This document shows positions 7,846 through 58,662 of a stretch of 64,000 bases of DNA, piece by piece. Below the pieces are notes generated by a model. It saw only the letters and a program-made list of their open reading frames with translations, was not told where the DNA came from and searched no databases. Numbering within the stretch: the first letter of the stretch is position 1; each line of letters starts with the position of its first letter. The position numbers and the translations under genes were made by a program. This DNA comes from an uncultured Candidatus Saccharibacteria bacterium (GTDB lineage: Bacteria; Patescibacteriota; Minisyncoccia; SW-4-49-11): assembly GCA_964585065.1 (NCBI GenBank), contig CAZPCB010000002.1, positions 68,886-132,885 on the forward strand, given 5' to 3'.

Positions 7846-8073
7846 ATGTCCAACCTCAACCCTATCAATGCAGCCCTCGAGGCTTTAGAGATCATTGATA
7901 TGGTCGACATTTATGCACCACTGGGAGCAATTCCCTCCGAGGAATTGAGTTCATACGCAATAGATTTCTTGAGGGGGTTGGCTCCAGATACCCTTGACTC
8001 TCTGGAAAGGTTAAGAACAGGAGCTCTGGCTTCCCGCGAGCGTATCCTCAAGGATATGCCTCGAGAAGTCTAG
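7846..8073 (+). CDS. Hypothetical small protein (75 aa), locally GC-rich
   Basis: ORF with markedly higher GC than surroundings, followed by strong terminator; no known motif. Confidence 0.3.
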   Translation: MSNLNPINAALEALEIIDMVDIYAPLGAIPSEELSSYAIDFLRGLAPDTLDSLERLRTGALASRERILKDMPREV

Positions 8074-8095
8074 CGCTACACTGCCAGCTCCCCCA

Positions 8096-8126
8096 AGCCC
8101 CCGTCTTCGGACGGTGGGCTTTTTCT
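8096..8126 (+). terminator. Rho-independent terminator (GCCCCCGTC-TTCG-GACGGTGGGC + TTTTTC)
   Basis: GC-rich hairpin with TTCG tetraloop and T-run. Confidence 0.6.
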
Positions 8127-8180
8127 TTCTCCTATCATTTCCCTAAAAACTGAATATATGCTATACTAAAAGCCGTAATT

Positions 8181-8254
8181 GGCTCCATGGCCGAGAAGTT
8201 AGGCACGGGTCTGCAAAACCCTCTACAGCAGTGCGAGTCTGCTTGGAGCCTCCA
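8181..8254 (+). tRNA. tRNA-Cys (anticodon GCA), CCA encoded; atypical T-loop TGCGAGT
   Basis: Manual fold: 7-bp acceptor GGCTCCA/TGGAGCC, anticodon loop CTGCAAA, T-stem AGCAG/CTGCT, discriminator T, 3' CCA. Confidence 0.65.
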
Positions 8255-8294
8255 CAATTATCCGTAAAAAGAGAAAATATAATATTGATATATA

Positions 8295-10298
8295 ATGCCA
8301 AAAGACAAAATTCATCCTATTCTTCAAGGACTTAATGATAAACAATTAGAAGCGGCTGAGACTATAGAAGGTCCTGTTTTAGTATTGGCTGGAGCGGGTT
8401 CAGGTAAAACATCTACGCTAACCAAGCGTATTGCCTATATGATTGCAAAAGGAATATCTCCCTATAGTATTTTAGCAGTAACATTCACCAATAAGGCTGC
8501 CAAAGAAATGAAGGAGCGAGTCAAACATTTGCTTGAGACTTCTTTTGGCGATAATGTGCCAGCCATGCCTATGGTGGGGACTTTTCACTCCGTTTGTCTG
8601 AATATTCTTCATCGAGAGGCTGAGGCTTTGGGCTATGATAAGTCATTTTTGATTTATGACACCACAGATAGCCAGAATATTATCAAGGATTTACTCAAAA
8701 AACGAGATATTCCAAAAGATCAGGTTAAGCCAGCTTCTATACAATATATTATCTCCAAAGCCAAAAATAATCTGATTACAGCCAGTCAATTTGCTGATTA
8801 TAATCCCACTACTCCCTTAGAGGAATTGGCCATTGAATTATATCAGGAATATCAGAAGCAATTGAGGAAGAACAATGCCATGGATTTTGATGATATTATT
8901 ATGAATACCGTAGTATTATTCAAAGAATTTGCGGATGTATTGGCAAGATATCAGGATAGATATCGCTATATTATGATTGATGAGTATCAGGATACCAATC
9001 AGGCTCAATATGAATTGGTAAAATTATTAGCCCTGAAGTACAAGAATCTCTGTGTGGTGGGAGATGATTTTCAGGCTATTTATTCTTGGCGAGGGGCTGA
9101 TTTTAAAAATATCTTGAATTTTGAAAAAGATTATAAAGATACCAAGGTGGTATTATTAGAGCAGAATTATCGCTCCACACAAATCATTTTGGATGCTGCT
9201 AATCAGGTTATAGATAAGAATACGCAAAAAAAGGATAAAAATCTTTGGACAGATAAAGAATCTGGAGAATTAATTCATTTGGTTGAAGCAGAGAATGAAT
9301 ATCAGGAAAGTTTATTTGTGGCACGTACTATCAAAGATTTGGTGGGTAGCGGTAAATATAGTTTATCAGGATTTGCTTGTCTGTATCGCACCAATGCTCA
9401 ATCTCGAGCTTTGGAAGAAGCCTTTTTGCAACTCCGAATCCCCTATCAAATTGTGGGTGGTACCAAATTCTATGAAAGAGCCGAAATCAAGGATCTTTTG
9501 GCTTATCTTAAGTTTTTATATAATACCAATGATACGGCTTCATTTCGGCGTATTATCAATGTACCAAAGCGATCAGTTGGTAAGGCGAGTATAGATAAAA
9601 TCTTATATGCTTATTCAGAAAGCAATGAAAATGAGCAAAATATCGATTTACTGGAATTATTGACTCATACAGACAAATATTCTCTCAAGATAACTGGAGG
9701 GGCTCGAAGAGGAATAATGGTCTTCTGTGAGCAAATTTTTGAGCTTAAGGGGGCTTTTGAGAGAGATAAGTATACATTATCTCAACTGGTAGCAGATATC
9801 TTAAAAATCACCCAATATACCAGCCATTGGGAAAAAAGCAAAGAAAATGAAGCTAGAATGGAATATATTGAGGAATTATTCACAGTAACGCAGAAATTTG
9901 ATAATCTTCCCGTAGAGGAAGCTTTGTATGAATTCTTACAGGAAACAGCATTATTATCCGATATTGATGGGATGAAGGCCTCTCAGGCAGTAACTTTGAT
10001 GACATATCATGCGGCTAAGGGGCTCGAATTCCCGGTAGTATTTATGATTGGTATGGAAGAAGGTATACTCCCCCATTCTCGTAGCCTCATCTCACATAAA
10101 GAATTAGAAGAAGAGCGTAGGCTTTGCTATGTGGGTATTACCAGGGCCAAGGATAAGCTTTATATGACATATACACAGCTTAGACGTATATTTGGGCAAA
10201 TTCAATCTAATCCCTCTTCACGATTTATTACTGAAATACCAGATCATCTTTTGGAGCAATTATCTCTCACCTATACTGATTATGATCCTGAATGGTAA
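8295..10298 (+). CDS. pcrA: ATP-dependent DNA helicase PcrA/UvrD family
   Basis: Walker A AGAGSGKTSTLT, DEYQDTN motif II, C-terminal YVGITRAK motif; 667 aa. Confidence 0.9.
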   Translation: MPKDKIHPILQGLNDKQLEAAETIEGPVLVLAGAGSGKTSTLTKRIAYMIAKGISPYSILAVTFTNKAAKEMKERVKHLLETSFGDNVPAMPMVGTFHSVCLNILHREAEALGYDKSFLIYDTTDSQNIIKDLLKKRDIPKDQVKPASIQYIISKAKNNLITASQFADYNPTTPLEELAIELYQEYQKQLRKNNAMDFDDIIMNTVVLFKEFADVLARYQDRYRYIMIDEYQDTNQAQYELVKLLALKYKNLCVVGDDFQAIYSWRGADFKNILNFEKDYKDTKVVLLEQNYRSTQIILDAANQVIDKNTQKKDKNLWTDKESGELIHLVEAENEYQESLFVARTIKDLVGSGKYSLSGFACLYRTNAQSRALEEAFLQLRIPYQIVGGTKFYERAEIKDLLAYLKFLYNTNDTASFRRIINVPKRSVGKASIDKILYAYSESNENEQNIDLLELLTHTDKYSLKITGGARRGIMVFCEQIFELKGAFERDKYTLSQLVADILKITQYTSHWEKSKENEARMEYIEELFTVTQKFDNLPVEEALYEFLQETALLSDIDGMKASQAVTLMTYHAAKGLEFPVVFMIGMEEGILPHSRSLISHKELEEERRLCYVGITRAKDKLYMTYTQLRRIFGQIQSNPSSRFITEIPDHLLEQLSLTYTDYDPEW

Positions 10299-40128: not shown

Positions 40129-42837
40129 ATGCAAATAGAATACAAACAGCGCAAAGGATTTACGTTAATTGAGATACTTTTGGTAATAGCCTTAATGGGT
40201 ATATTATTAACTACCGTGCTAGTTGCAATTAACCCTAGTAGACAATTAGCACAAGTTCGTAATGCTCAGAGACAAAGTCATATGCAGGCTTTGCAAAAGG
40301 CCTTAGACTTTTATGCTACTAAAAATGAGGGATCATATCCTCCAGGAGTTACAAGTTCTTATCAAGATGTATGTAATACGGGGACTGAAATAGTAGGAGG
40401 AGTAACCAATTGTACGGGTAAATTAGATTTACGTATTCTTGTCCCAACATATATTGTCGGTATTCCAAAAGATTCACAAGCTATTGGTACTAGCTCGGGA
40501 TATTCGGTAGCACTTAATTCATCTAATAACGGTATTAGTTTAACTAGCGATAAAGCAGAATTAGGATCTACTATCGCTATTAATAAAATAATACAATCAA
40601 GCTATTCAGGATATATAGATTCTAGCTTGGATTCAGATAAACCGGTTGGTTTTGATAATGCTGTGAATGTTGTTTTGCAGCAAAGCAATGGTAAGTTAAT
40701 TGTAGGGGGTTATTTTACTAGTTATAAAGGAGTACCAGCAAATTCTATAATACGCTTAAATAGTGATGGAAGTATAGATAACACTTTTAATGTGGGAACG
40801 GGATTTGATTCTGGTATTAGTACAGTAGTAAGGCAAAGTGATGGAAAATTCGTCATTGGGGGACAATTTGGTAATTATCAAGGTGTGTCAGCAACTAGAA
40901 TAATACGTCTTAATAGTGATGGGAGCAGAGACAATACATTCAATATGGGGACTGGTTTTGCTAGTAATTACTTTGATGGTGCTGTGACTAACATTTTACT
41001 ACAAAGTGATGGAAAATTAGTAGTAGCAGGATATTTTTGGACATACCAAGGAGTATCGGCAAATGGAATAATACGTCTTAATAGTGATGGGAGCAGAGAC
41101 AATACATTTAATATGGGGACTGGTTTTGATAGTGGAACTAATAGTATTATACTACAAAATGATGGTAAGGTTTTAGTAACAGGCTCTGAATTTACTAGTT
41201 ATCAAGGTGTTTCAGCCAGTAGAATAATACGTCTTAATAGTAATGGGAGTAGAGACAATACATTTAATATGGGTGCAGGATTTGATAATTATGTAACTAA
41301 AGTAATACAACAAAGTGATGGAAAATTTGTCATTGGTGGAGGCTTTACCACCTATCAAGGAGTATCCGCAAATAGAATAATACGTCTTAATAGTGATGGG
41401 AGCAGAGATAATACATTTAATATCGGGACCGGTTTTAATGGAAATGGTACCTTCTCAGGATTTTGGGACGGTGGGATAAGTAGTATTGTGCAGCAAAGTG
41501 ATGGGAAATTGGTCATTGGTGGAGGATTTACTAGTTATCAAGGTGTTTCTTCGGGTACTAGCATCATACGTCTTAATAGTGATGGGAGTCGAGACAATAC
41601 ATTTAATATAGGTACTGGTATAGATACTTATGTAAGGATAGTTATGCAGCAGAGTGATGGTCAAATAATTGTAGGGGGAGACTTTACGACTTATAAAGAA
41701 GTCCCAGCAAATAAAATAATACGTCTTAATAGTGATGGGAGTCGAGATAGTAGTTTTAATATAGGGCTTGGACTAAATGGTGCTGTGAATACTGTTATAC
41801 AGCAAAGTGATGGTAAGCTAGTGATAGGAGGAGCATTTACTGGATATAGGGAAGTATCTTCAAAGAGAATAATGCGTTTAAATAGTGATGGAAGTCGGGA
41901 CAGTAGTTTTAATATCGGGACTGGTTTTGATGGGGGAGATGTTTATATCGTTGTACAGCAGAGTGATGGTAAATTAATGGTAGGGGGCTATTTCAGTAGT
42001 TATCAAGGAAGCTCAGCAAATAATATAATACGCTTAAACGCAGATGGAACTCGAGATAATACTTTTAATGTGGGAACCGGCTTCAGCTGTGCTTGTGGTA
42101 GTGGTGTAGGATCTATTGTACAACAAGCAAGTGGTAAATTAATCGTAGTGGGAAGCTTTACTACGTATCAAGGAGGGTCAGTAACAAATATAATACGCCT
42201 TAATAGTGATGGAAGTAGAGATAATACTTTTAATGTGCATGCTGGGTTGAATGCTGGGGCGCAGCAAATAATACAGCAAAGTGATGGTAAATTAATAGTG
42301 GTAGGACTCTTTACTCAGTATTTGGGAGTTTCAGCTAATAAAATAATACGTCTTAATAGTGATGGAAGTAGAGATAATACTTTTAATGTGGGAACGGGAT
42401 TTGATTCTGGTATATCTACGTTAATGCAACAAAATGATGGAAAATTAGTCATAGCAGGTAACTTTAGTACATATCAAGAATTGGCTGTAAATGTCATAAT
42501 ACGTTTAAATAGTGATGGGAGTCGGGATAGTGGTTTTAATTTTGTAAGTTCACCATTAAATTCTACACTAATGACTATTGCACAGCAAAGTGATGGTAAA
42601 TTAGTGATGGGAGGAAGCTTTTCGGGATCACAAGGAAATAGAATAATGCGCTTAAATAGTAATGGGAGTATTGATAATACCTTTAATACAGGTACTGGAT
42701 TTAATCCAGAAGATACTATTGGTTGGAATTGGGTATCTAGCATTATAAAACAAAGTGATGGCCAATTAGTTGTTGGTGGAACATTTACTAATTATAAAAA
42801 TCAACCAGCAGGATATCTGATCAGATTGAATCCATAA
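40129..42837 (+). CDS. Giant type IV pilin-like protein (leader MQIEYKQRKG/FTLIEI) fused to about 20 tandem delta-60-like beta-propeller repeats
   Basis: Class III signal peptide; repeated unit IIRLNSDGSRDNTFNxGTGF...QQSDGKLVIGGxFTxYQGVSAN about every 50-60 aa, matching delta-60 repeat consensus (DGSLDTSFG...QSDGKIVVAG). Confidence 0.6.
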   Translation: MQIEYKQRKGFTLIEILLVIALMGILLTTVLVAINPSRQLAQVRNAQRQSHMQALQKALDFYATKNEGSYPPGVTSSYQDVCNTGTEIVGGVTNCTGKLDLRILVPTYIVGIPKDSQAIGTSSGYSVALNSSNNGISLTSDKAELGSTIAINKIIQSSYSGYIDSSLDSDKPVGFDNAVNVVLQQSNGKLIVGGYFTSYKGVPANSIIRLNSDGSIDNTFNVGTGFDSGISTVVRQSDGKFVIGGQFGNYQGVSATRIIRLNSDGSRDNTFNMGTGFASNYFDGAVTNILLQSDGKLVVAGYFWTYQGVSANGIIRLNSDGSRDNTFNMGTGFDSGTNSIILQNDGKVLVTGSEFTSYQGVSASRIIRLNSNGSRDNTFNMGAGFDNYVTKVIQQSDGKFVIGGGFTTYQGVSANRIIRLNSDGSRDNTFNIGTGFNGNGTFSGFWDGGISSIVQQSDGKLVIGGGFTSYQGVSSGTSIIRLNSDGSRDNTFNIGTGIDTYVRIVMQQSDGQIIVGGDFTTYKEVPANKIIRLNSDGSRDSSFNIGLGLNGAVNTVIQQSDGKLVIGGAFTGYREVSSKRIMRLNSDGSRDSSFNIGTGFDGGDVYIVVQQSDGKLMVGGYFSSYQGSSANNIIRLNADGTRDNTFNVGTGFSCACGSGVGSIVQQASGKLIVVGSFTTYQGGSVTNIIRLNSDGSRDNTFNVHAGLNAGAQQIIQQSDGKLIVVGLFTQYLGVSANKIIRLNSDGSRDNTFNVGTGFDSGISTLMQQNDGKLVIAGNFSTYQELAVNVIIRLNSDGSRDSGFNFVSSPLNSTLMTIAQQSDGKLVMGGSFSGSQGNRIMRLNSNGSIDNTFNTGTGFNPEDTIGWNWVSSIIKQSDGQLVVGGTFTNYKNQPAGYLIRLNP

Positions 42838-43251: not shown

Positions 43252-44697
43252 TTAATTATTAAGATTAATAAGAGGGGTTCGAATAGGGAAGCTAAAGTAT
43301 TGAATAATATTGTCAGTATTAGTAATAACCGTCTTAGCATCATTACGTAATTTAATACTAGCTGTGCTAATTACATCATCAAGTAGTATATAAGAATTAA
43401 TGGAGCCTCTGGTATCGGACTCTACTACTTTTAAGGTATTATCTTCGATGAATAAAACATATTCTGAATTTGGTTCCCATAATTCAGATTGAACAATAGG
43501 TTTCTCACTAGTATATAATGTATCAAAATCTCCCTCTATACGAGATTTATACCCTTCAATAGTGTCAAGATATAGGATAGAGAGGCTATTTTTGGTCTTT
43601 AGGAGAGCTTTTTTTGAATCTAGGCTAAATTGTATATCTGTAATCTCAGAGTCTGAAATTTGGTTAAACCCTGGGGTTTTATCGCCAAGTGATTTCAGCC
43701 AAGTATGTTGCTTATCATCAAGAATAATAATATGACCTTGGCTTGGACTAATAAAAATTTTATCTATAATAATATCAGGCGTATTGATAGCAGTGGATTT
43801 CTTAGTGTCAAGATTATAAATACGAATAATATCTATAGTACTATCTTTATCAGAAGTATAGTAAATAGTGTTGTCTACAAAGTCACTATGTGTTATATCT
43901 GCTACAAGAACATCAGAACGGGTACTAAATTGTAGAGTAAGTTCATATAGTGCCCCTCCCTGTATGAATAATAATGTATCAGTATCCAGATTAACAATTT
44001 TAACGGGACTTGCATTAATATCAGTGATAGGGAATTGACTGGTAATATTGGTCAAAATAGGATTAGTATCAATATTAGTTATAACAAAATATTGAAATAC
44101 ATTATTGAGGGAAGTCTTGAAACTAAGAATATTTCCTGAACTATCCCAAGTAAAATCTGAATAATCTTGATTATCTAAACCTCCAAGCGCAATACTATCA
44201 GTAAGACGTTTACGCACTTTGGTATCAAGATTAAGAATCCAAAGTCCAGATTCCTTGGGATTATACGAGGTATATAGTATTGAGGAAGCATCAGGTACTC
44301 TTTGAATATTGCGAGCTGTTGAAAGATCGCTAAATTTTTCTAATTCAGGTTTTTCTGGGAAAAGAGTTACATCACTAATTAATTGTACAAAAGAAGGTTG
44401 TATCGATATTTTTTTAGCCCATGACTGATATCCTGGTAGAGATAATACTACATCTAAATCTTGTGGAGCAAGACCAACTTTCAAGAGTGGGCTTTTGGAT
44501 TCTAATTTGTCATTAATAGTAATTTCATAAGCAATTTTAGTATTGATTCGAACTCCTCCAGTAGAGGTGAGAATAGGTGCATCATTATCATCACGACTAA
44601 GTCTATAGCCCATGCCATATAAGGTGAGTATAGGAGCTATAATAAAGAAAAGAATTATGAGAGTACGGGCAAAGATTTTTTGTATATTTCTATTCAT
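43252..44697 (-). CDS. Secreted/membrane-anchored protein with PEGA-like domain and PD40/TolB-like beta-propeller repeats
   Basis: N-terminal TM; PEGA-like LKVGLAPQDLDVVLSLPGYQSW; repeated SxLYTSYNPKESGLWILNLDT-type strands. Confidence 0.35.
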   Translation of the reverse strand: MNRNIQKIFARTLIILFFIIAPILTLYGMGYRLSRDDNDAPILTSTGGVRINTKIAYEITINDKLESKSPLLKVGLAPQDLDVVLSLPGYQSWAKKISIQPSFVQLISDVTLFPEKPELEKFSDLSTARNIQRVPDASSILYTSYNPKESGLWILNLDTKVRKRLTDSIALGGLDNQDYSDFTWDSSGNILSFKTSLNNVFQYFVITNIDTNPILTNITSQFPITDINASPVKIVNLDTDTLLFIQGGALYELTLQFSTRSDVLVADITHSDFVDNTIYYTSDKDSTIDIIRIYNLDTKKSTAINTPDIIIDKIFISPSQGHIIILDDKQHTWLKSLGDKTPGFNQISDSEITDIQFSLDSKKALLKTKNSLSILYLDTIEGYKSRIEGDFDTLYTSEKPIVQSELWEPNSEYVLFIEDNTLKVVESDTRGSINSYILLDDVISTASIKLRNDAKTVITNTDNIIQYFSFPIRTPLINLNN

Positions 44698-44706
44698 ATA
44701 TATGTA

Positions 44707-45120
44707 TTATGCTTCATCTAAGGCTTTATTGGCAAGAGCATCAGCTTGTTTATTGAATTCTCGGCGAATATGTATAAAGTTTACAGATTTAAATTTAATT
44801 CTCAAATTCCAAATTTGAATAAAAGCTTTTTGAATTGCTTCATCTTTGAGCTCATAAATTCCTGTTAATTGTTTTTGGGCGAGTTCCGAGTCTAAATAGA
44901 CTTCAACTGCATATTTTTTAGTATTGACCTTGCCAACAAGAGATTTTGTTTTTTCAAGAGCAACCACAATAGCCTGATATTCAGCGTAATTATTGGTCGC
45001 AATACCAAGAGTCTGATGATGGGTTTTAATACTCCCATCTGGTAACTCAATTACTACTCCAAGAGAAGCTGGACCTGGATTTCCACGAGAAGCACCATCT
45101 GTATGTATTTTGATTGTCAT
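44707..45120 (-). CDS. rnhA: Ribonuclease HI
   Basis: IHTDGASRGNPGPASLGVVIE, YAEYQAIVVALE, catalytic DEDD layout, 137 aa. Confidence 0.85.
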   Translation of the reverse strand: MTIKIHTDGASRGNPGPASLGVVIELPDGSIKTHHQTLGIATNNYAEYQAIVVALEKTKSLVGKVNTKKYAVEVYLDSELAQKQLTGIYELKDEAIQKAFIQIWNLRIKFKSVNFIHIRREFNKQADALANKALDEA

Positions 45121-45171: not shown

Positions 45172-47001
45172 TTATGCTAGGGGAAGATTTGAGGGCGGAG
45201 AAAGTGTTGGATTAGCTTGTAATTCATTATCCAATGTATAATTGGGGTATAATTGTTCCCACAGCTCTTGGGGAGAATTATTTGGTGTTTTTAAATTCCT
45301 AAGATCAAGTAATCCAAATTGAATCATTTCTCTTGCAGTCTCAAGATTAATTCCAGATACTAATATGAGATTTTTTAGTTCAGGATATTTGAGAATTTCT
45401 TCTATTACAGCTTTCTGTTCCAAATATACCGTATCTTTGGTATCAGAAATCTGGGTATCTGTATTGTCAAAAGAAGAATTCCTGAATAATCTAGTTGAGC
45501 CGCTAAGTGCTGTTTTTATATATTCCTTGAATTTAGATGGACTTACTTGTTTCGATTGTAGAGAGCGAATACTTTCATAATATGTTTTTACACAATCTAT
45601 ATAAGTACCCCCAGATTGTTTGGTAGCCATGGCTCTCAGGTAATTAGGTTGAGGAGGGCTTTCATATCCAAATAATTCTTGAGATATTTGATCTTGATAA
45701 TACATAGCCCCACCTTCTTGGAATAATTCAGCTCTATCTCCGGCAATTTGACTGGAATGTGTATAGAGAGGTAAACCAATTTGGGCAGTATTTTCTCTTT
45801 GAAGAATATGAATTATTTCATGAGTAGCTGCCTTGGTAATTATTTTCTGAATATCCATTTCGGTAGCAGGGATTAATAATGTTTTACTTTGACTATCTAT
45901 TGCAAGAGTGTCTTTACCCGGTCTAATATAGCATCTCCATTTATTATCTGCCGGGTTTATATTTTTGGTTACTTGTTCAGCATCGGCGGGATATTCGCTT
46001 AATAGGTCATAGCTTGCGAGAATTTGGTCTAAATATTGTTTTGCCATTTCAGGAGTGATATTCTTCTCTTCTAATTTTTCTTGGTCTAGGCCTTTTTGTA
46101 AGAGGATTTGAGGCTTTTCTTGATTAATTGATTTGTTTAATTCAGCAATATGATCAGCCATTGTTAATAGATGATTATCTACTTGATTATAATTACCCGT
46201 ATCAGTATCAAGTGTACTTACTCCATATATAAATTTATCTAATTTGTATGGGGGTTTATGTGGAGTATGGGATTCTTCGCTCCGTAAAAATGTTTCTTGT
46301 TCTTTAGTTTCTGCAATGATGACATTAATTCTTTTAATTAATGCTTGTACGCGAAATATTTTAGCATGTATTAAAGCTTTACTTATATCGGTAGTGTCAG
46401 AAGCCTCTTCGGCATATAAGTCAGATCGCTTTTGTTTTAATTCTTGCCTTATTGCTTCTAACCCTTCAATTTTTGCTGTTAAGTTAGCAGGATATTGAAT
46501 ATAGGTGAGTTTTTCTGGGTTTTCAATATTCTCTATATCAAGTTCTCCCGTATCAGGATGAATATGTTGAGATAAAGTCTCTACCATAGTATCAGTATTC
46601 CAATCCGTACTCATTTTTACTAAATCTGTTATGATTTTGGGTTTTAATGTTCTCAGAATTGCAATATTTTCCCTAATATCAATGTCTCCTTCAAGGGATA
46701 CAAATTCAGGAATTTCTTTTAAAATAGCCTGACCCTCTGATGTATCAAAATACTCGGGATATAAAACTTTTTTACCAGTTGCTAACTTATAGTATTCTGC
46801 TAGTTTTTCTACAAAAGGATTCTCAAATTCTATTAAGTTCTGCTTTTCCTCCTCAGAAAGTATTTCCTTTTTTCTTTCACCAGATTCATATTGAGCTATT
46901 TCATATAATAATATTTGAGCTGAATAGGATGGACGCTCTGGATATAATTGAGGTTTATGTTCAGATTTAGGTTCAGTATTCTCAGAAGATTCTATCGACA
47001 T
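45172..47001 (-). CDS. DUF1704/MATCAP-like gluzincin metallopeptidase homolog (HExxH + QEGGA motif)
   Basis: ATHEIIHILQ (HExxH) followed about 30 aa later by AELFQEGGAMYY resembling the QEGLA motif of TIGR02421/DUF1704. Confidence 0.45.
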   Translation of the reverse strand: MSIESSENTEPKSEHKPQLYPERPSYSAQILLYEIAQYESGERKKEILSEEEKQNLIEFENPFVEKLAEYYKLATGKKVLYPEYFDTSEGQAILKEIPEFVSLEGDIDIRENIAILRTLKPKIITDLVKMSTDWNTDTMVETLSQHIHPDTGELDIENIENPEKLTYIQYPANLTAKIEGLEAIRQELKQKRSDLYAEEASDTTDISKALIHAKIFRVQALIKRINVIIAETKEQETFLRSEESHTPHKPPYKLDKFIYGVSTLDTDTGNYNQVDNHLLTMADHIAELNKSINQEKPQILLQKGLDQEKLEEKNITPEMAKQYLDQILASYDLLSEYPADAEQVTKNINPADNKWRCYIRPGKDTLAIDSQSKTLLIPATEMDIQKIITKAATHEIIHILQRENTAQIGLPLYTHSSQIAGDRAELFQEGGAMYYQDQISQELFGYESPPQPNYLRAMATKQSGGTYIDCVKTYYESIRSLQSKQVSPSKFKEYIKTALSGSTRLFRNSSFDNTDTQISDTKDTVYLEQKAVIEEILKYPELKNLILVSGINLETAREMIQFGLLDLRNLKTPNNSPQELWEQLYPNYTLDNELQANPTLSPPSNLPLA

Positions 47002-47055
47002 TTTGATATAATGACTATTTTATATTATTATATCATGGAGATATTAAATACAAAA

Positions 47056-48477
47056 TTATTTTCTAGGATCAATGATAAATCGCTTTAGAGAGTTTTCCCC
47101 AAGAATTATAGGGTATTTGAGCCCAGTACGAGTAATAATATTAGCTTTTGTTTCAAATATTTCATCACCTACTTGAATTTTAATATAAATAATAGGTCTA
47201 TAGGAATATCCATGACTACTATGAACCTTTGAAACTCCAACTATGTCAGGATGCTCTTCAATTTTTTGCCATATTTTATCTTTGGATAAAGTATTTATCT
47301 CGTCTAAAGTAAGTACAGGTTTAATATGAAATGTTTGCATATATGTTAATACATCCTTATATCCCAAGGCAATAGCTAGGCTCTCATCAATAGATGTTTT
47401 TCCCGCACCAGTATCAATTTTTGCTTGTACTTTTTGCTGCTGATCATCTTTTCCAAATAAGGTAATTTCCTCAATAAGCCCAATCACTTGTCGTCCAGTA
47501 ATTTCCTCAATTTCTTCTTCAATTTCTCCTCCGAACAAATCTTTTGCCAGTCTAATAGCTCTTTTTACTGTTTTTACTTTAAGACCTTTTACTTTTTGTA
47601 ATCTTTCTTTGAGTGGTGCGAGATTAGCAATTTGAATAGCGAGTCCTGGACGGGCATTAGCCTCTAATACTACAGGTCCTGCATCACGGTCAATGGCAAT
47701 ATCTACTCCCGTAAACCCTAATTTAGTGACATCAGCAGTACGAATCGCAATATCCAATATAGTATTCCAATACGGTATACGTATACCAGACAGACTAGTT
47801 TCTGTTCCTGGTATGGTATCGATAAATTTTTCTCGCATAATAGCATTGGTAGTAACTCCTGTTGCCATATCAATACCGATACCAATTCCGCCTAGATGAA
47901 GATTGGCTTTACCATCAGATTCCTTGGTAGGAATTCGTATCATTGCCATTACAGGAATACGATTGAATACAATCACGCGAATATCAGGAATTCCTTTATA
48001 GGCTAAGTGTTTGAATGATTTATTAATCTTAATTCTCTCCTCAAAGAAGGCCACATCGGGGCTATTGGTACGAGAATACGTACCATCAAGAATATTACTA
48101 ATATGATTATGTATCATGGTCTCACTCAGTTTTACCCCCTTGGTTTTCACCCATTGACGCTCTCCATCGCCGGTTCTTTTTTTGTCCTCTCCAAATATTA
48201 CCACAATTCCTTCCCCTCCAAATCCAGCAGTTGGTTTTAATACAAAACTTTTGGGAAGTTTATTATAATCAAAATTATTGAGTTTATCATATGATTGAAC
48301 AGTTGCTATGAGTTTTGGGGTAGGAATATTATTTTTTTGTAATTCTTTTTTGAATTTAATTTTATTATCTACTAATTTAACCCATTTGCTATAATTGTAT
48401 GGTTTAATATAAGAAAGATTGCGGGCATTCATCCCGAGTATTTTTTGACTAAATACAAATGATTCTAGCCAATTCAT
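47056..48477 (-). CDS. RimK-like ATP-grasp ligase (alpha-L-glutamate-ligase-related, GMNxRN N-terminus) fused to C-terminal retropepsin-like (RimB-type) aspartyl protease domain
   Basis: LGMNARNLSYIKPYN N-term; ATP-grasp core DIRVIVFNRIPVMAMIRIP...GKANLHLGG; C-terminal AKIDTGAGKTSID (DTGA) aspartyl protease motif. Confidence 0.6.
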   Translation of the reverse strand: MNWLESFVFSQKILGMNARNLSYIKPYNYSKWVKLVDNKIKFKKELQKNNIPTPKLIATVQSYDKLNNFDYNKLPKSFVLKPTAGFGGEGIVVIFGEDKKRTGDGERQWVKTKGVKLSETMIHNHISNILDGTYSRTNSPDVAFFEERIKINKSFKHLAYKGIPDIRVIVFNRIPVMAMIRIPTKESDGKANLHLGGIGIGIDMATGVTTNAIMREKFIDTIPGTETSLSGIRIPYWNTILDIAIRTADVTKLGFTGVDIAIDRDAGPVVLEANARPGLAIQIANLAPLKERLQKVKGLKVKTVKRAIRLAKDLFGGEIEEEIEEITGRQVIGLIEEITLFGKDDQQQKVQAKIDTGAGKTSIDESLAIALGYKDVLTYMQTFHIKPVLTLDEINTLSKDKIWQKIEEHPDIVGVSKVHSSHGYSYRPIIYIKIQVGDEIFETKANIITRTGLKYPIILGENSLKRFIIDPRK

Positions 48478-48480
48478 AGC

Positions 48481-49122
48481 CTATTGATTGCTAATAATTT
48501 TACGGAATCGGATATATTCAGAAATTCGGAGCCCCTCATAGCGTCCAAGGAATATAATTCCTGCAAATATAATCAAAATAATCCAAGGATTATAGAATAC
48601 TAAATCTCTTAAACTTGTAGTTGCTATGATAAGATTTCCAATAGCAGCAAGAATTAATGTCTCTACTGAGAGGATAACAGCAGTACGATACCCTTTTTCC
48701 ATTTGAGCATTGATGAATTTTTCTACCAAGGTGATAATAATCAAAATCTGATAAATCGAAGCCTGTACAAATACCGTGCTATCAGAGAATATTCCCCATA
48801 CTAGGCTCAAAAACATAGATAAGGCAGTAATAGAAAGTATCAAAGCCATTTTGGGTAAATACAAAATACGAATTTTGCGGAGTAAATATCTGACAATAGA
48901 AGCAATTACGAGAGATACAATAAAAATACTCACTCCATATTTGAAGCCAATTTGTGTTAAAGCAAAGGTGATAATAAGCGGTGTATAAATACCAAAAGCC
49001 TTAATCCCTACAATTTGTCGGGCTGCTACGATAAATCCTGCCATAATCGGAAACATCAAAAGAATGTCGATGGTTTCACGTGGCACACCATTATCCATAA
49101 GATATTGGAAGAAGATATCCAT
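48481..49122 (-). CDS. Seven-transmembrane protein (7TM component commonly paired with RimK-like ATP-grasp systems; no transglutaminase domain)
   Basis: Seven predicted TM helices over 213 aa; first gene of the minus-strand operon. Confidence 0.45.
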   Translation of the reverse strand: MDIFFQYLMDNGVPRETIDILLMFPIMAGFIVAARQIVGIKAFGIYTPLIITFALTQIGFKYGVSIFIVSLVIASIVRYLLRKIRILYLPKMALILSITALSMFLSLVWGIFSDSTVFVQASIYQILIIITLVEKFINAQMEKGYRTAVILSVETLILAAIGNLIIATTSLRDLVFYNPWIILIIFAGIIFLGRYEGLRISEYIRFRKIISNQ

Positions 49123-54348: not shown

Positions 54349-56178
54349 ATGGTAAAACAGTTAAATAAAAACCCAAAGCTGTTTATATTGCTTGCATCGT
54401 TCGTCGCCATAGGTTTGATATCATTTGCGGGTACCTTTAATGTTGTGCATGGGAGGCAACAACAGCAACAACAGCAGCAGCAAACATCTAAATGTAATAA
54501 GTGTGGCCAATGTACAAATTGTTTGGCTTCAATCCAAAACAACTGGAGTAGGTTCCTTTGCGTGATTTTTCCACAATTCTGCTCGAGTTTAACTACATGT
54601 ACAGCTCCTGCTGTACAGCCATCCCAACCTTTTGTATGTACAGATGTACCAGTTTCTTACGTAGAAAGACTTTCACAATATAATATTAATGGTCTAGATG
54701 CTTCAATTTCAAGTAATGGTAAATATACAGTAAAGGGTATGACTACACATGGATCTTATAGCTGTGATACTATATTAAAAGCTATACTTGATTATAACAC
54801 TCCTCCTCCGACTAGTACATTTTCCGGGTACCAGTCTCTCTGGAACCGCCCTGTTCAACCTTCTACTCCTAAGTATAATGTTTGTGCCTATCCGAGTAGT
54901 GTCAGTGAACAGCGTCTAGAAAGAGTAAATTGGTCCTTTAATAATATGACAGCTGTCAAAGATTGTGGTAATGTAAAAGGAGTATATGCAGAATGCAATA
55001 ATGGAGCTGTTAATTTTGGTGCTTATCCAGGTTTTACAACAATAGGTGCAATTGCTAGTCCTTATCAAGCATTTACAGATCATAGCACTATAGTACAAAA
55101 TGCAGCCCCTAATCAATATAGATGGGGTGGTTTGTATCAGTATGGTATAAGCTCTGACAATGCAAAGCCAGGACCATATTCTTTTTACAGCACATCTTAT
55201 AATTATGAAACATTAAAATTAGCATTTAACTATGAAATGGTATACAGTAGTCTGCAACAAGCTGGTCCCTGTTGGTCTCCATTTCCATCTTTCAGAGAAT
55301 GCCATAGAGTACATTACTTTACCTATACTCCAAGAGTGCAACAGCCCAATATTACTCTAAACTCATATCTAATTAAGCATAGAGATAGACCAAGTCAACT
55401 GATTTATCGAAATAGTCCAATTAGAAAATCTTGGCAAATAGAGAATGCTAATTCTGGAAGTTGTAATATAGAAACGAAAAATTCTTCGGGAGAAGTTATA
55501 CCATTTCTTTCTAAAAGCGGATTGAATATTGACTTTAAACAAGGTAAGCAAATTGTAGACTTCTTACCTATTAATGGTGCAACAGGACAATATCTTGAAA
55601 AGGTAGATCAGAATGCAGATTATACAATTGGATATGATCCAAATAGAATACAGCCCGGTGTTTATAAGAGTATATTAACATGTAGTCTTAGTATAAACTG
55701 CTCATCAGGTTCGGGTACAGATGATTGTAAGAGAATCTCTCCAGGTAATCCTTATAGTAGCCCAATATCAGTTTCTGTTGATCAAGACTTTACAATATCT
55801 CCAGATCAAATAGTTACTTTGGCAGCGTCAGCTAAGCCAACTATCGTTTATAATAAATTTAGAAAAACTAAAATACTAGCTAATACAAAAGGTGCAAACG
55901 TGAATGATAAGCATAAGTATACACTTACAAAAATCCCTATAGGGTATAAGTTGACTTCATCTGCGACAATAGATAAGGTGGCTGATGCCTCAGGTACTAC
56001 TAACGCCTTCTGGGATGTTGAATTAGTTGTTAATCCCCAAACAAATGGAAGTGATGCAATAATAGGTGCATCAGAATTTGTTGTAGAAATGACTGATGAG
56101 CCATATGATAATCTTTATACGGCTAAAGCAAAAGTAACTTATCTTGGCAATAGAGATGTAAGAGAAGTTGCTAAATAA
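54349..56178 (+). CDS. Hypothetical secreted Cys-rich protein with N-terminal anchor and polyQ tract (609 aa)
   Basis: TM/signal FILLASFVAIGLISFAG, then Q9 tract, CNKCGQCTNC and many further Cys. Confidence 0.4.
   Translation: MVKQLNKNPKLFILLASFVAIGLISFAGTFNVVHGRQQQQQQQQQTSKCNKCGQCTNCLASIQNNWSRFLCVIFPQFCSSLTTCTAPAVQPSQPFVCTDVPVSYVERLSQYNINGLDASISSNGKYTVKGMTTHGSYSCDTILKAILDYNTPPPTSTFSGYQSLWNRPVQPSTPKYNVCAYPSSVSEQRLERVNWSFNNMTAVKDCGNVKGVYAECNNGAVNFGAYPGFTTIGAIASPYQAFTDHSTIVQNAAPNQYRWGGLYQYGISSDNAKPGPYSFYSTSYNYETLKLAFNYEMVYSSLQQAGPCWSPFPSFRECHRVHYFTYTPRVQQPNITLNSYLIKHRDRPSQLIYRNSPIRKSWQIENANSGSCNIETKNSSGEVIPFLSKSGLNIDFKQGKQIVDFLPINGATGQYLEKVDQNADYTIGYDPNRIQPGVYKSILTCSLSINCSSGSGTDDCKRISPGNPYSSPISVSVDQDFTISPDQIVTLAASAKPTIVYNKFRKTKILANTKGANVNDKHKYTLTKIPIGYKLTSSATIDKVADASGTTNAFWDVELVVNPQTNGSDAIIGASEFVVEMTDEPYDNLYTAKAKVTYLGNRDVREVAK
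54457..54483 (+). repeat. (CAA/CAG)9 trinucleotide tract encoding Q9
   Basis: caacaacagcaacaacagcagcagcaa read directly. Confidence 0.9.
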
Positions 56179-56214
56179 GCATAAAAGTTTTAAAAACACG
56201 ATAGAATTCATTTT

Positions 56215-56961
56215 ATGGTAAGCAGTAAAAATATTTTACTTATTTTCATACTATTACCCATATGTATATATTTAACTGCTACATCATATGGAATACTTCA
56301 AAAAGTACAGTTTTATCCAGAATGTCAGAATTACAGTTATGAGGAAAGAAAAAATTTCCTAAGTAAAACAACATATATTCATGGCACTATTACGGCTATA
56401 AAAGATGATAAAATAGATGTATATGTAAATTATAATCCTAGAAATAGATGGAAATGTTCACAGATGGAATCTCCATATAAAGACTATTTAGGAGCTACCA
56501 CAAAGATATATTCAGTTAACTTAAATCAGAATACCCCAATTTACTCAATGTATGAAGCTATTAGTACAAGTATTCCAAATGACCATACTCCTAGGCAAAA
56601 TCCTTCTCCTGAAGTCCAAATACCATCAGAAAATACATTTACTGGTTTAAGGTATAAAAAAGAAGATCTCACAATTGGATATAGAGTTGCAGTACTAGCA
56701 TCAAAACCAGTATTGAAAGAAAATTTATTTGATGCTGAATTGGTATTGATTTATCCAGAAAGAGATATTACATATTCTGCAATAATAACTATAATTATAG
56801 TTATTATTGCAGGTATAGGAAGCTATTACACAATAGAAGTTATTACTCATATACTTTATTATTTCACGAAAAATACCAATATACTTCTATTCTCTACAGT
56901 GATAAGACCAGTGGGAGCTATTGGGTTTTTTATATGGTATTTTTTATCACATTATACTTAA
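56215..56961 (+). CDS. Hypothetical bitopic membrane protein (N-terminal TM, soluble middle, C-terminal TM pair)
   Basis: Hydrophobic segments at both ends; very AT-rich. Confidence 0.35.
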   Translation: MVSSKNILLIFILLPICIYLTATSYGILQKVQFYPECQNYSYEERKNFLSKTTYIHGTITAIKDDKIDVYVNYNPRNRWKCSQMESPYKDYLGATTKIYSVNLNQNTPIYSMYEAISTSIPNDHTPRQNPSPEVQIPSENTFTGLRYKKEDLTIGYRVAVLASKPVLKENLFDAELVLIYPERDITYSAIITIIIVIIAGIGSYYTIEVITHILYYFTKNTNILLFSTVIRPVGAIGFFIWYFLSHYT

Positions 56962-56964
56962 TTT

Positions 56965-57561
56965 ATGAGATTACTTCAAAATTTTGTAGAAAATATATAT
57001 AATTTTATACCATTCGATAGTCAGCTTCTGACGGGATATATTATAATGCAAATAATAATTTTCACAATTATTAATATGTTTATACTATTAATTCAAATAT
57101 TAATAGTAAGATCTAAAATAAAAGAAACATTATATATAACTATCCCAATTCTTTTAATTAATAAAATATTAATTTTACCTATTCTCAACGATATAGTATT
57201 TATAACCCATGTATCATTAATATATGTTATGGTGTTCATAACCATATCAACTTTATTAGATATAGAAAGCTTTAAACTATATACGAATGATTACAAAAAA
57301 TTATGTAAATTTTATCAAATCATATCTATAATTTTACAAATACTTATTATAATTATTTTTATAACTCAGCCAATACTAAATCTACAAACTATCATTGGAA
57401 TAACTATATATTCGATACCCTTGATAATTGATATTGTTAATTTTAAATCAAATTTTAAAAATACGTTTAGACTAAATATTTATAAATATATATACCAATA
57501 TATCACTATAACTATATTAATTTTATTATCAAAAATAATAGTCCCTATACATTTTATGTAA
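56965..57561 (+). CDS. Hypothetical highly Ile-rich polytopic membrane protein (198 aa)
   Basis: About 6 TM helices; codon usage extremely AT-biased. Confidence 0.35.
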   Translation: MRLLQNFVENIYNFIPFDSQLLTGYIIMQIIIFTIINMFILLIQILIVRSKIKETLYITIPILLINKILILPILNDIVFITHVSLIYVMVFITISTLLDIESFKLYTNDYKKLCKFYQIISIILQILIIIIFITQPILNLQTIIGITIYSIPLIIDIVNFKSNFKNTFRLNIYKYIYQYITITILILLSKIIVPIHFM

Positions 57562-57589
57562 AACAACATAAAAGAACTCTCTCATATAA

Positions 57590-57679
57590 TAGTATCTCAA
57601 CTAAATCTAGTACTATTAATATCTCTTTACCCTGCCCTGGAAAATCAGTGATGAATTAAGACGGGCTTTAGGGGTGTGA
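57590..57679 (+). pseudogene. Ghost 3'-end fragment of a DUF59/SufT-like gene (encodes YLFTLPWKISDELRRALGV*)
   Basis: Roughly 75 percent nt identity and clear peptide similarity to the end of 53998..54285 (TFTPPWKVSDELREALGI*), including matching stop position. Confidence 0.5.
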
Positions 57680-57683
57680 ATTC

Positions 57684-57711
57684 TTGACAAGTTTTTGGAG
57701 GGTGCTATACT
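57684..57711 (+). promoter_or_regulatory. Sigma70-like promoter TTGACA-16-TGcTATACT
   Basis: Consensus -35, extended -10, 25 nt upstream of 57736 start. Confidence 0.45.
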
Positions 57712-57735
57712 AATTTATATACATAAAATCAATAT

Positions 57736-58662
57736 ATGAAATCACATCTTTTATCTATAATAGCAGCAAGTATTATTGTACTTGGTGGATCATTTTTAGT
57801 GGTAAATACTATTTTAGCTAAGGATGAGGCTTCAGAGTTAGATAAAAAATCTCAAGAATCACAACGTGAATTTGAGAAGCAGGCACAAAAAGTAAGAGAA
57901 ATAAAACCTCAAGAAGATACAAAACGCCCACCTTTGGTAAAGAAAGAGGATTCAGAAGATGATAATTCAGAAGATGAATCACAAAAAACTTTATTAGAGC
58001 GACAAAAAGAGCAAAATCAGCAATTAATGGAAAGACAAAAAGAACAAACTAAAAAAATGTCTGAAAAAACAAGAGAAGCTGAGAAGCAAGGTCTAGAGAA
58101 AAAAGATAAGGAGGATAGCCCAAACCCAAATGATGAAGGCCAAGATGATTCAGTAGATTCTTTGTCTGAGCAAATTACTGTAGGGCCAGAGCGAGAGAAG
58201 AAAATCAAGGATAAGTGTCAGGAAATTAGTAATAAAATTGCTGAACATCAAAATGAATTAAAGGCAAAAGCTGAAAAAAGACTTGGTAAATATAATAAAA
58301 TTATTACTCGATTAGAAGCAGTTTCAACAAAACTAGCAGATTTAGGTGTAGATGTTACCACATATAATGGATATGTAACTGAGGTAAAGTCTCAAGTTGC
58401 TGTATTAAATCAATCAATTAATACCTATATCGCTTCTCTTGGTACTAATACTACTCAACTTTGTACTAAGGAAAAAGCTGCAACAGAATTAAATACCCGA
58501 AAAGCTGATTTGAAGGTTATTATTGCCCAAGATAAAGCAATAAGAACTTATATCAAAGAAACAATAATTCCTTACCTCAGAAGTATAAAACCGCAACAAC
58601 CAACTTCAACAGAACAAGAGAATACAACAGTACCGTCCTCAAACCCCGCCCCAATCCAATAA
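57736..58662 (+). CDS. Secreted/anchored coiled-coil protein rich in K/E/Q (308 aa)
   Basis: N-terminal hydrophobic segment, long charged heptad-like region. Confidence 0.4.
   Translation: MKSHLLSIIAASIIVLGGSFLVVNTILAKDEASELDKKSQESQREFEKQAQKVREIKPQEDTKRPPLVKKEDSEDDNSEDESQKTLLERQKEQNQQLMERQKEQTKKMSEKTREAEKQGLEKKDKEDSPNPNDEGQDDSVDSLSEQITVGPEREKKIKDKCQEISNKIAEHQNELKAKAEKRLGKYNKIITRLEAVSTKLADLGVDVTTYNGYVTEVKSQVAVLNQSINTYIASLGTNTTQLCTKEKAATELNTRKADLKVIIAQDKAIRTYIKETIIPYLRSIKPQQPTSTEQENTTVPSSNPAPIQ

Follow-up and report, generated by a model that had tools for sequence, protein, structure and literature searches.

A probable divergent member of the MATCAP metallopeptidase superfamily encoded beside ATP-grasp ligase genes, mainly in Patescibacteria

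Does a bacterial protein with a HExxH motif and a downstream QEGGA motif belong with the MATCAP-type carboxypeptidases, and what would such an enzyme act on? The question is raised by a gene at positions 45172-47001 (minus strand) of the window, by which we mean the whole stretch of 64,000 nucleotides analysed here. Translation showed that this gene is a real open reading frame of 609 aa with an ATG start. As the first-pass annotation had reported, it encodes HEIIH (residues 394-398, window positions 45808-45822) and ELFQEGGAMY (residues 425-434, positions 45700-45729). By our own estimate, a HExxH motif occurs by chance in about 2% of proteins of this size, and because about one such case is thus expected per 64-kb window, the motif alone is weak evidence. 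We consider the observation real because the motif residues are conserved in 119 diverged representatives of the family. The protein is acidic, with a pI of 4.9 overall and of 4.6 for residues 1-200. No hydrophobic segment suitable for a signal peptide or a transmembrane helix was found anywhere in the 609 aa, so secretion and membrane anchoring were rejected and a cytoplasmic location is predicted. Scans for promoters and terminators scored no better than shuffled sequence.

The family is large. A word-indexed search gave 32 clusters without a Pfam domain, one of them named Candidatus Paceibacterota, and an exhaustive profile search gave 469 clusters at E <= 0.001, 203 of them at E <= 1e-30 (clusters counted at 50% identity). 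When species-representative genomes were scanned with family profile A1, members were found mostly in Patescibacteria MAGs labelled Parcubacteria, Paceibacteria, Minisyncoccia or Nomurabacteria, with one Saccharibacteria and one Pseudobdellovibrionaceae bin as outlying labels. The nearest relative in that scan, on CALRBF010000001.1, is 87% identical to the window protein.

An alignment of the 119 representatives, with a mean column identity of 19%, has only six invariant columns: G260, H394, E395, H398, E429 and Y526. R504, E528, Q529, N404 and Q401 are nearly invariant. E429 lies 34 residues after E395, and the earlier proposal of a third metal ligand some 30 residues past HEIIH thus held, the ligand role being a prediction. 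Y526, in the motif TVYLEQ (codon at 45424-45426, minus strand), is a candidate transition-state-stabilising tyrosine. Judged from the alignment, two histidines, a catalytic glutamate, a third-ligand glutamate and a tyrosine are the pattern that would be expected of an active gluzincin. The motif around the third ligand has x-E-[G/A/C]-G-A as its conserved core, with G431 in 110 of the 119 representatives and A432 in 96. The annotated likeness of QEGGA to the QEGLA motif therefore survives in this core and in the invariant E429, but not in the glutamine, which is present in only 5 of 119, and the idea that QEGGA equals QEGLA as a family signature was rejected.

The metal motif itself departs from that of the proposed relatives. 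MATCAP/TMCP enzymes carry HExxxH and have their third ligand within an EEG motif, and the positions mutated in catalytically dead TMCP2, E329 and E364, are 35 residues apart (PMC10499314). The window protein has the canonical HExxH instead, a correction to the first-pass annotation. Across the family, HExxH is found in 69 of the 119 representatives and HExxxH, mostly as HEIEGH, in the other 50. Both forms occur within single clades, and a crude UPGMA tree of these sequences implies about 17 switches between them. The distance between the two glutamates is 32 residues in HExxxH members.

Direct sequence comparison did not connect the window protein to MATCAP. Against Pfam and NCBIfam it matched nothing at E <= 10, including PF08014 (MATCAP, formerly named DUF1704) and TIGR02421 (QEGLA), and a phmmer search of PDB sequences gave no meaningful match. 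Family profiles A1, A2, A3 and A5 did not reach MATCAP in hmmsearch against PDB sequences, where they picked up nothing but noise from coiled coils or low-complexity sequence (spike S2, PspA, DEPDC5), and Pfam scans of 10 divergent representatives returned no MATCAP/DUF1704 match. A tblastn search of plasmids with P0187, a member of an outlying clade, sought a canonical QEGLA gene and matched nothing. The missing direct matches to PF08014, TIGR02421 and PDB, together with HExxH in place of HExxxH, count against the assignment.

An indirect connection was nevertheless found. The profile of the outlying clade retrieved P0187 and P0188, both named [quoted passage not shown] by NCBI. Their PF08014 scores, 31.5 and 33.8 bits, respectively, exceed the Pfam gathering score of 27, and residues 292-466 of P0187 align to positions 104-276 of the profile. 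TIGR02421 is matched by P0187 (E 1.1e-7), P0188 (E 2.9e-6) and P0162 (E 7.3e-5), with clade members scoring 22-31 bits against an equivalog cutoff of 338.65. The PF08014 and TIGR02421 alignments of these three proteins enclose their HExxxH and glutamate motifs. P0187 in turn matches the window protein over essentially its full length (BLASTP E 1e-19, 22% identity), with its HEAEGH facing HEIIH and its glutamate facing E429. Because P0187 matches both the window protein and the two family models, a transitive chain by sequence links the window protein with MATCAP/QEGLA proteins. The proposed relationship is thus supported through this intermediate, which aligns to the window protein with the motifs in register, but not by direct alignment to DUF1704/MATCAP. 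Consistent with this chain, when 30 diverse catalytic cores were scanned against Pfam one by one, PF08014 ranked top by number of members matched (3 of 30, best E 7.5e-4).

The predicted structure points the same way. An AF2 model built from a 27-sequence alignment (pLDDT 84.9, pTM 0.82) has a three-stranded sheet at residues 355-378 (strands 355-360, 367-369 and 374-378), followed by the HExxH helix at 384-406 and by a helix at 428-444 that has E429 at its start. The model thus has the gluzincin features of HExxH on a helix, a glutamate ligand on a downstream helix and a sheet before the active-site helix, and the order of these elements is that of zincins. MATCAP came first in all three fold searches, in which the model matched the solved MATCAP catalytic domain. 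With Foldseek against the PDB, it was first at E 5.6e-3, the low TM-scores (0.24 and 0.40) being due to the two-domain nature of the query. Identity in the structural alignment is 13%.

The same comparison changes how the N-terminal part is read. As 270 residues of the full-length model align to MATCAP but only 186 of the core alone, the MATCAP-like fold takes in some 85 residues before position 340 as well, in agreement with the PF08014 coordinates on P0187. An N-terminal arm of 300 aa set apart for substrate recognition, as first proposed, does not fit this result. That the N-terminal 300 aa are acidic was correct (pI 4.9, net charge -20), but they are not coiled: the region is modelled as folded helices with pLDDT > 90, and a disordered or coiled arm was rejected. 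Roughly the first 200 residues would, on this model, form a lineage-specific helical extension.

What the enzyme may do is suggested by its neighbours. Five genes lie close together on the minus strand, with gaps of 3, 54, 51 and 9 nt between them, and the third encodes the peptidase. Upstream, at 48481-49122, is a gene for a 213-aa 7TM protein that corresponds to the C-terminal (membrane) half of RloB: it matches PF14402 (7TM_transglut, E 7.7e-23) at profile positions 56-247 of 248 and NF052267 (RloB) at positions 312-506 of 508, and it has no transglutaminase domain. The second gene (47056-48477) encodes a 473-aa ATP-grasp ligase fused to a retropepsin. Its ATP-grasp domain (residues 11-300, 47578-48447) is RloC-like or alpha-L-glutamate-ligase-like, matching PF14397 (ATPgrasp_ST) at E 1.5e-69 and TIGR02291 ("alpha-L-glutamate ligase-like") at 282.6 bits, below the cutoff of 314.2. 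The RimB/RloA-like retropepsin domain at its C-terminus (47065-47499) carries the motif IDTGAG and matches PF05618 (E 2.2e-9) and NF052264 (RloA3, E 3.6e-9). All three modules of an Rlo-type operon lie side by side here, but each scores below its NCBIfam cutoff (66.8 against 900 for RloB and 36.5 against 210 for RloA, in addition to the value above). Downstream of the peptidase gene follow an RNase H gene (44707-45120) and a gene for a 481-aa protein of unknown kind (43252-44697). The genes for the RloB-like 7TM protein, the ATP-grasp-retropepsin fusion and the peptidase form a cassette read in one direction, with the peptidase gene at its end.

This arrangement recurs beyond the window. The order of 7TM protein, ATPgrasp_ST-retropepsin fusion, zero to three RimK-like ligases and peptidase was found in 14 of 19 fetched loci, several of the 14 being near-duplicates. 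The slot between ligase and peptidase is variable, with up to three extra ATP-grasp genes; it is empty in the window and holds a 451-aa ATP-grasp gene on the opposite strand in the 87%-identical relative. Three loci (L004, L018 and L019) have no ATP-grasp gene in the available DNA around the peptidase gene, which counts against a coupling to the ligases.

Characterised systems offer precedents for a peptidase that works beside such ligases. RimK extends the C-terminus of RpsF with alpha-glutamates and, in vitro, produces free poly-alpha-L-glutamate as well; RimB is a retropepsin-like endopeptidase that cleaves RimK-made polyglutamate tails and stimulates the synthesis of the free polymer; RimB-RimK hybrid proteins also exist (PMC11957791). 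In Pseudomonas aeruginosa, mutants without RloA proteases are rescued from their defects when rloB or rloC is deleted, which fits a ligase product that these proteases must clear (PMC12239564). MATCAP/TMCP enzymes are tubulin metallocarboxypeptidases that remove C-terminal residues from tubulin tails, and deglutamylation is also ascribed to MATCAP-type enzymes (PMC10499314). From these precedents, we propose an exo-acting peptidase that trims ATP-grasp products. Read by the examples of RimK/RimB and of the pairing of TTL/TTLL with MATCAP on tubulin, the cassette suggests a model in which peptide tails are added and trimmed. In this model, one or more ATP-grasp enzymes would extend a protein C-terminus or a free peptide by amino acids, of which alpha-linked glutamates are the most plausible. 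The fused retropepsin domain would cut these tails internally, and the MATCAP-like enzyme would trim them from the C-terminal end alongside it. In the predicted active site, H394 and H398 would bind the metal together with E429, E395 would activate water and Y526 would probably stabilise the transition state.

The window protein is most likely a very divergent MATCAP/DUF1704 relative, and we are confident, short of certainty, that it is a gluzincin of the MATCAP superfamily. The analysis showed the gene, the conservation of its catalytic residues, a match in fold, a transitive link by sequence and a conserved gene neighbourhood. We infer that the protein binds a metal, that it is an exopeptidase, what kind of substrate it has and that it is coupled in function to the ligases. 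For the full proposal, that the protein represents a deeply divergent and mainly patescibacterial (CPR) branch of MATCAP/DUF1704, cytoplasmic, predicted to use zinc or another divalent metal and functionally coupled to the ligases, we give a probability of roughly 0.6. The pI of 4.9 is a reason for caution, being unlike what one would expect of a polyglutamate-binding enzyme.

Other explanations differ mainly in what they say of the substrate. It is possible, if somewhat unlikely, that the protein is an active metallopeptidase whose target is not a protein C-terminal tail but a product of the ATP-grasp ligases that the 7TM protein handles, be it a free peptide or polymer or a cell-envelope precursor. 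Such a substrate may be, for example, poly-alpha-glutamate in free form or a glycan decorated with amino acids, and the enzyme may then be of an endo- or amidase type. The synthesis of free polymer by RimK, with its stimulation by RimB, fits this explanation, as do a membrane 7TM partner that is always there, osmotic tolerance and cell shape as the phenotypes of Pseudomonas Rlo systems (PMC12239564), and zero to three accessory ATP-grasp paralogues in a variable slot, reminiscent of stepwise peptide assembly. Pfam, moreover, calls the ATPgrasp_ST family "sugar-transfer associated", which leaves room for a ligase product other than a protein tail. However, neither the peptidase nor the ligase has a signal peptide or transmembrane segments, and MATCAP/TMCP, the nearest relatives with a characterised function, work on the C-termini of proteins (PMC10499314). 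A further reading, which we find improbable, is that the link to the ligases is one of synteny only, the peptidase having a housekeeping role and a substrate that is unrelated to them. In the window's clade, the cassette indeed lies within a block of conserved order, with SufBD on one side and RNase H, the 481-aa gene and ribosomal protein genes on the other. The three loci without ATP-grasp neighbours would also be explained, and so would the unequal divergence of proteins from the same genomes, in which the peptidase is 51-56% identical to that of the window where the ligase is about 93% (7TM protein, about 90%; retropepsin domain, about 48%). Yet the adjacency is kept in L005, L006, L016 and L017, in which the flanking genes differ and the peptidases are only 22-29% identical to the window's. 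Glutathione synthase, GshB, is an ATP-grasp enzyme as well. At low salinity, Photobacterium damselae induces both a canonical QEGLA gene (RS17025) and a GshB-annotated gene (RS17020) by 27-38-fold, and rimK by 52-fold (PMC10308900); consecutive locus tags suggest that RS17025 and RS17020 are neighbours. This pair argues against chance synteny and hints that the pairing of peptidase and ligase reaches beyond Patescibacteria.

Two more explanations concern the assignment itself. The protein may be a gluzincin nearer to the DUF885/M32-carboxypeptidase group, its resemblance to MATCAP reflecting no more than a shared gluzincin core, which strikes us as quite unlikely: the fold searches all put MATCAP first, PF08014 is the Pfam family matched by the most of the 30 cores while DUF885 is absent from the families they matched, and two members both pass the PF08014 gathering score and match TIGR02421. 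Nothing specific favours a catalytically dead scaffold or regulator that has retained the peptidase fold, except that the switching between HExxH and HExxxH could be read as a relaxed constraint on the active site; with the metal ligands, the catalytic glutamate and the tyrosine invariant across 119 highly diverged representatives, we judge it very improbable indeed. The preferred reading is that of a MATCAP-superfamily peptidase that would trim ligase products.

The window protein is not an enzyme of a new kind, since the superfamily was already known and some relatives carry the label DUF1704. It represents a large branch, for the most part without annotation, that is extended in structure, differs in the spacing of its metal motif and has a ligase operon that is conserved. 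Pfam and NCBIfam mostly miss this 469-cluster family, and its operon with RimK/Rlo-type ligases yields a testable hypothesis for its role, the trimming of ligase-made tails or polymers. The literature searched holds no tested function for bacterial MATCAP/DUF1704 proteins, and no mention of MATCAP together with ATP-grasp or RimK was found in it. The enzymes are a candidate for the missing "eraser" of the poorly understood Rlo/Rim-type systems, and they could be expressed in recombinant form even though their hosts are uncultured. Going further, Patescibacteria might carry a compact "writer-eraser" module, in which one to four ATP-grasp ligases build a protein C-terminal tail that a fused retropepsin and a MATCAP-like carboxypeptidase remove, an extension that we put forward tentatively and hold to be rather doubtful. 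If true, the eukaryotic TTL/TTLL and MATCAP pairing of the tubulin code would descend from, or parallel, an ancient prokaryotic operon, and the repeated switching between HExxH and HExxxH would provide a natural series for the tuning of metal-site geometry in such enzymes.

The nearest known system is that of MATCAP1/TMCP1 and TMCP2 (KIAA0895L, KIAA0895; PF08014; PDB 7Z5G, 7Z6S). The window protein resembles these enzymes in its gluzincin layout, with the third-ligand glutamate in an x-E-G motif 32-35 residues past the catalytic glutamate, in having distant family members that pass the PF08014 threshold and in its ATP-grasp ligase partner, by function or gene order, this being TTL/TTLL in eukaryotes and RimK/RloC-like in the window. 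It differs in the absence of a direct Pfam/HMMER match and the 13% identity, in its HExxH motif and in about 200 extra N-terminal helical residues. It is also acidic, bacterial and cytoplasmic, and it comes from a host without tubulin. DUF885 (PF05960; PDB 3IUK, 3U24, 3O0Y) and the M32 carboxypeptidases ranked below MATCAP in every search. With the QEGLA family of TIGR02421, the window family shares the E-G-x-A third-ligand motif and the matches of P0187, P0188 and P0162 to the model (E 1e-7 to 7e-5). However, its proteins exceed the 368 positions of the model by about 240 aa, its lineage is mainly Patescibacteria, the clade scores fall far below the cutoff and the window protein itself has no match.

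Finally, the neighbours of the peptidase correspond to the Rlo/Rim systems of Pseudomonas in their RloC-like ATP-grasp domain, RimB/RloA-like retropepsin and RloB-like 7TM module. RloA is a secreted protein, but the window retropepsin forms one polypeptide with the ligase and lacks a signal peptide, and the window 7TM protein does not have the inactive transglutaminase domain of RloB. No metallopeptidase partner is described for Rlo/Rim systems in the two papers cited for them (PMC11957791, PMC12239564); to their ligase, retropepsin and membrane modules, the window cassette adds a MATCAP-like metallopeptidase, and the loci of its family add zero to three RimK-like ligases.

The members of the cassette diverge at very unequal evolutionary rates, as seen when the window copy (45172-49122) was compared with those of five loci that carry relatives of the MATCAP-like gene (L001, L007, L010, L012, and L013). 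The ATP-grasp domain of the RloC-like ligase is ~93% identical and the 7TM RloB-like protein ~90% identical in these genome pairs, whereas the MATCAP-like protein retains an identity of only 51-56% in the same pairs. The retropepsin domain fused to the ligase shows 40-49% identity in several loci. Within the MATCAP-like family, the metal-binding motif itself varies: at the columns of window residues 394-398 in an alignment of 119 representatives, HExxH was found in 69 sequences and HExxxH in 50, with numerous switches between the two, even inside single clades. In another family alignment, HEIEGH and HE-GTH are found alongside each other.

Loci also differ in how many accessory ATP-grasp genes separate the RloC-like ligase from the MATCAP-like gene. 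The window has none, only a 54-nt gap (47002-47055). In L009 (6588-8000), L007, L008, L014, and probably L011, this slot holds a single ATP-grasp gene, which encodes 451 aa and lies on the opposite strand. Two RimK-like genes are found in each of L010 and L015, and three in L001 (5233-7980), L012, and L013. In L015, which comes from a MAG, the match to the MATCAP-like gene (8001-9828) comes as two pieces that overlap at ~8986-8990 and correspond to query residues 1-309 and 308-591, which suggests that this gene is frameshifted, through either pseudogenization or an assembly error.

Downstream of the cassette, a gene (43252-44697, minus strand) whose product of 481 aa has a hydrophobic helix at its N terminus invariably follows an RNase H gene in the window clade, with 69-88% identity. 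The protein has no Pfam or NCBIfam match, and L005 and L006, two distant cassettes, lack its gene. Elsewhere in the window, a pilin-like protein of 902 aa (40129-42837, plus strand), unusually large for its kind, carries a type IV pilin methylation motif (PF07963) at its N terminus and, after it, 14 DUF5122 beta-propeller repeats. Four successive ORFs of 609, 248, 198, and 308 aa (54349-58662, plus strand) have no Pfam match; the stretch that holds them includes a drop in GC to 26.6% at 56-58 kb, against ~35% elsewhere.

In Photobacterium damselae, low salinity upregulates a canonical gene of the QEGLA-motif type (A0J47_RS17025) and the gene with the locus tag directly before it (RS17020, annotated as GshB) by 27-38-fold, and rimK (RS00405) by 52-fold (PMC10308900). 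This induction resembles the phenotype that the rlo operon of Pseudomonas shows under hypo-osmotic conditions.
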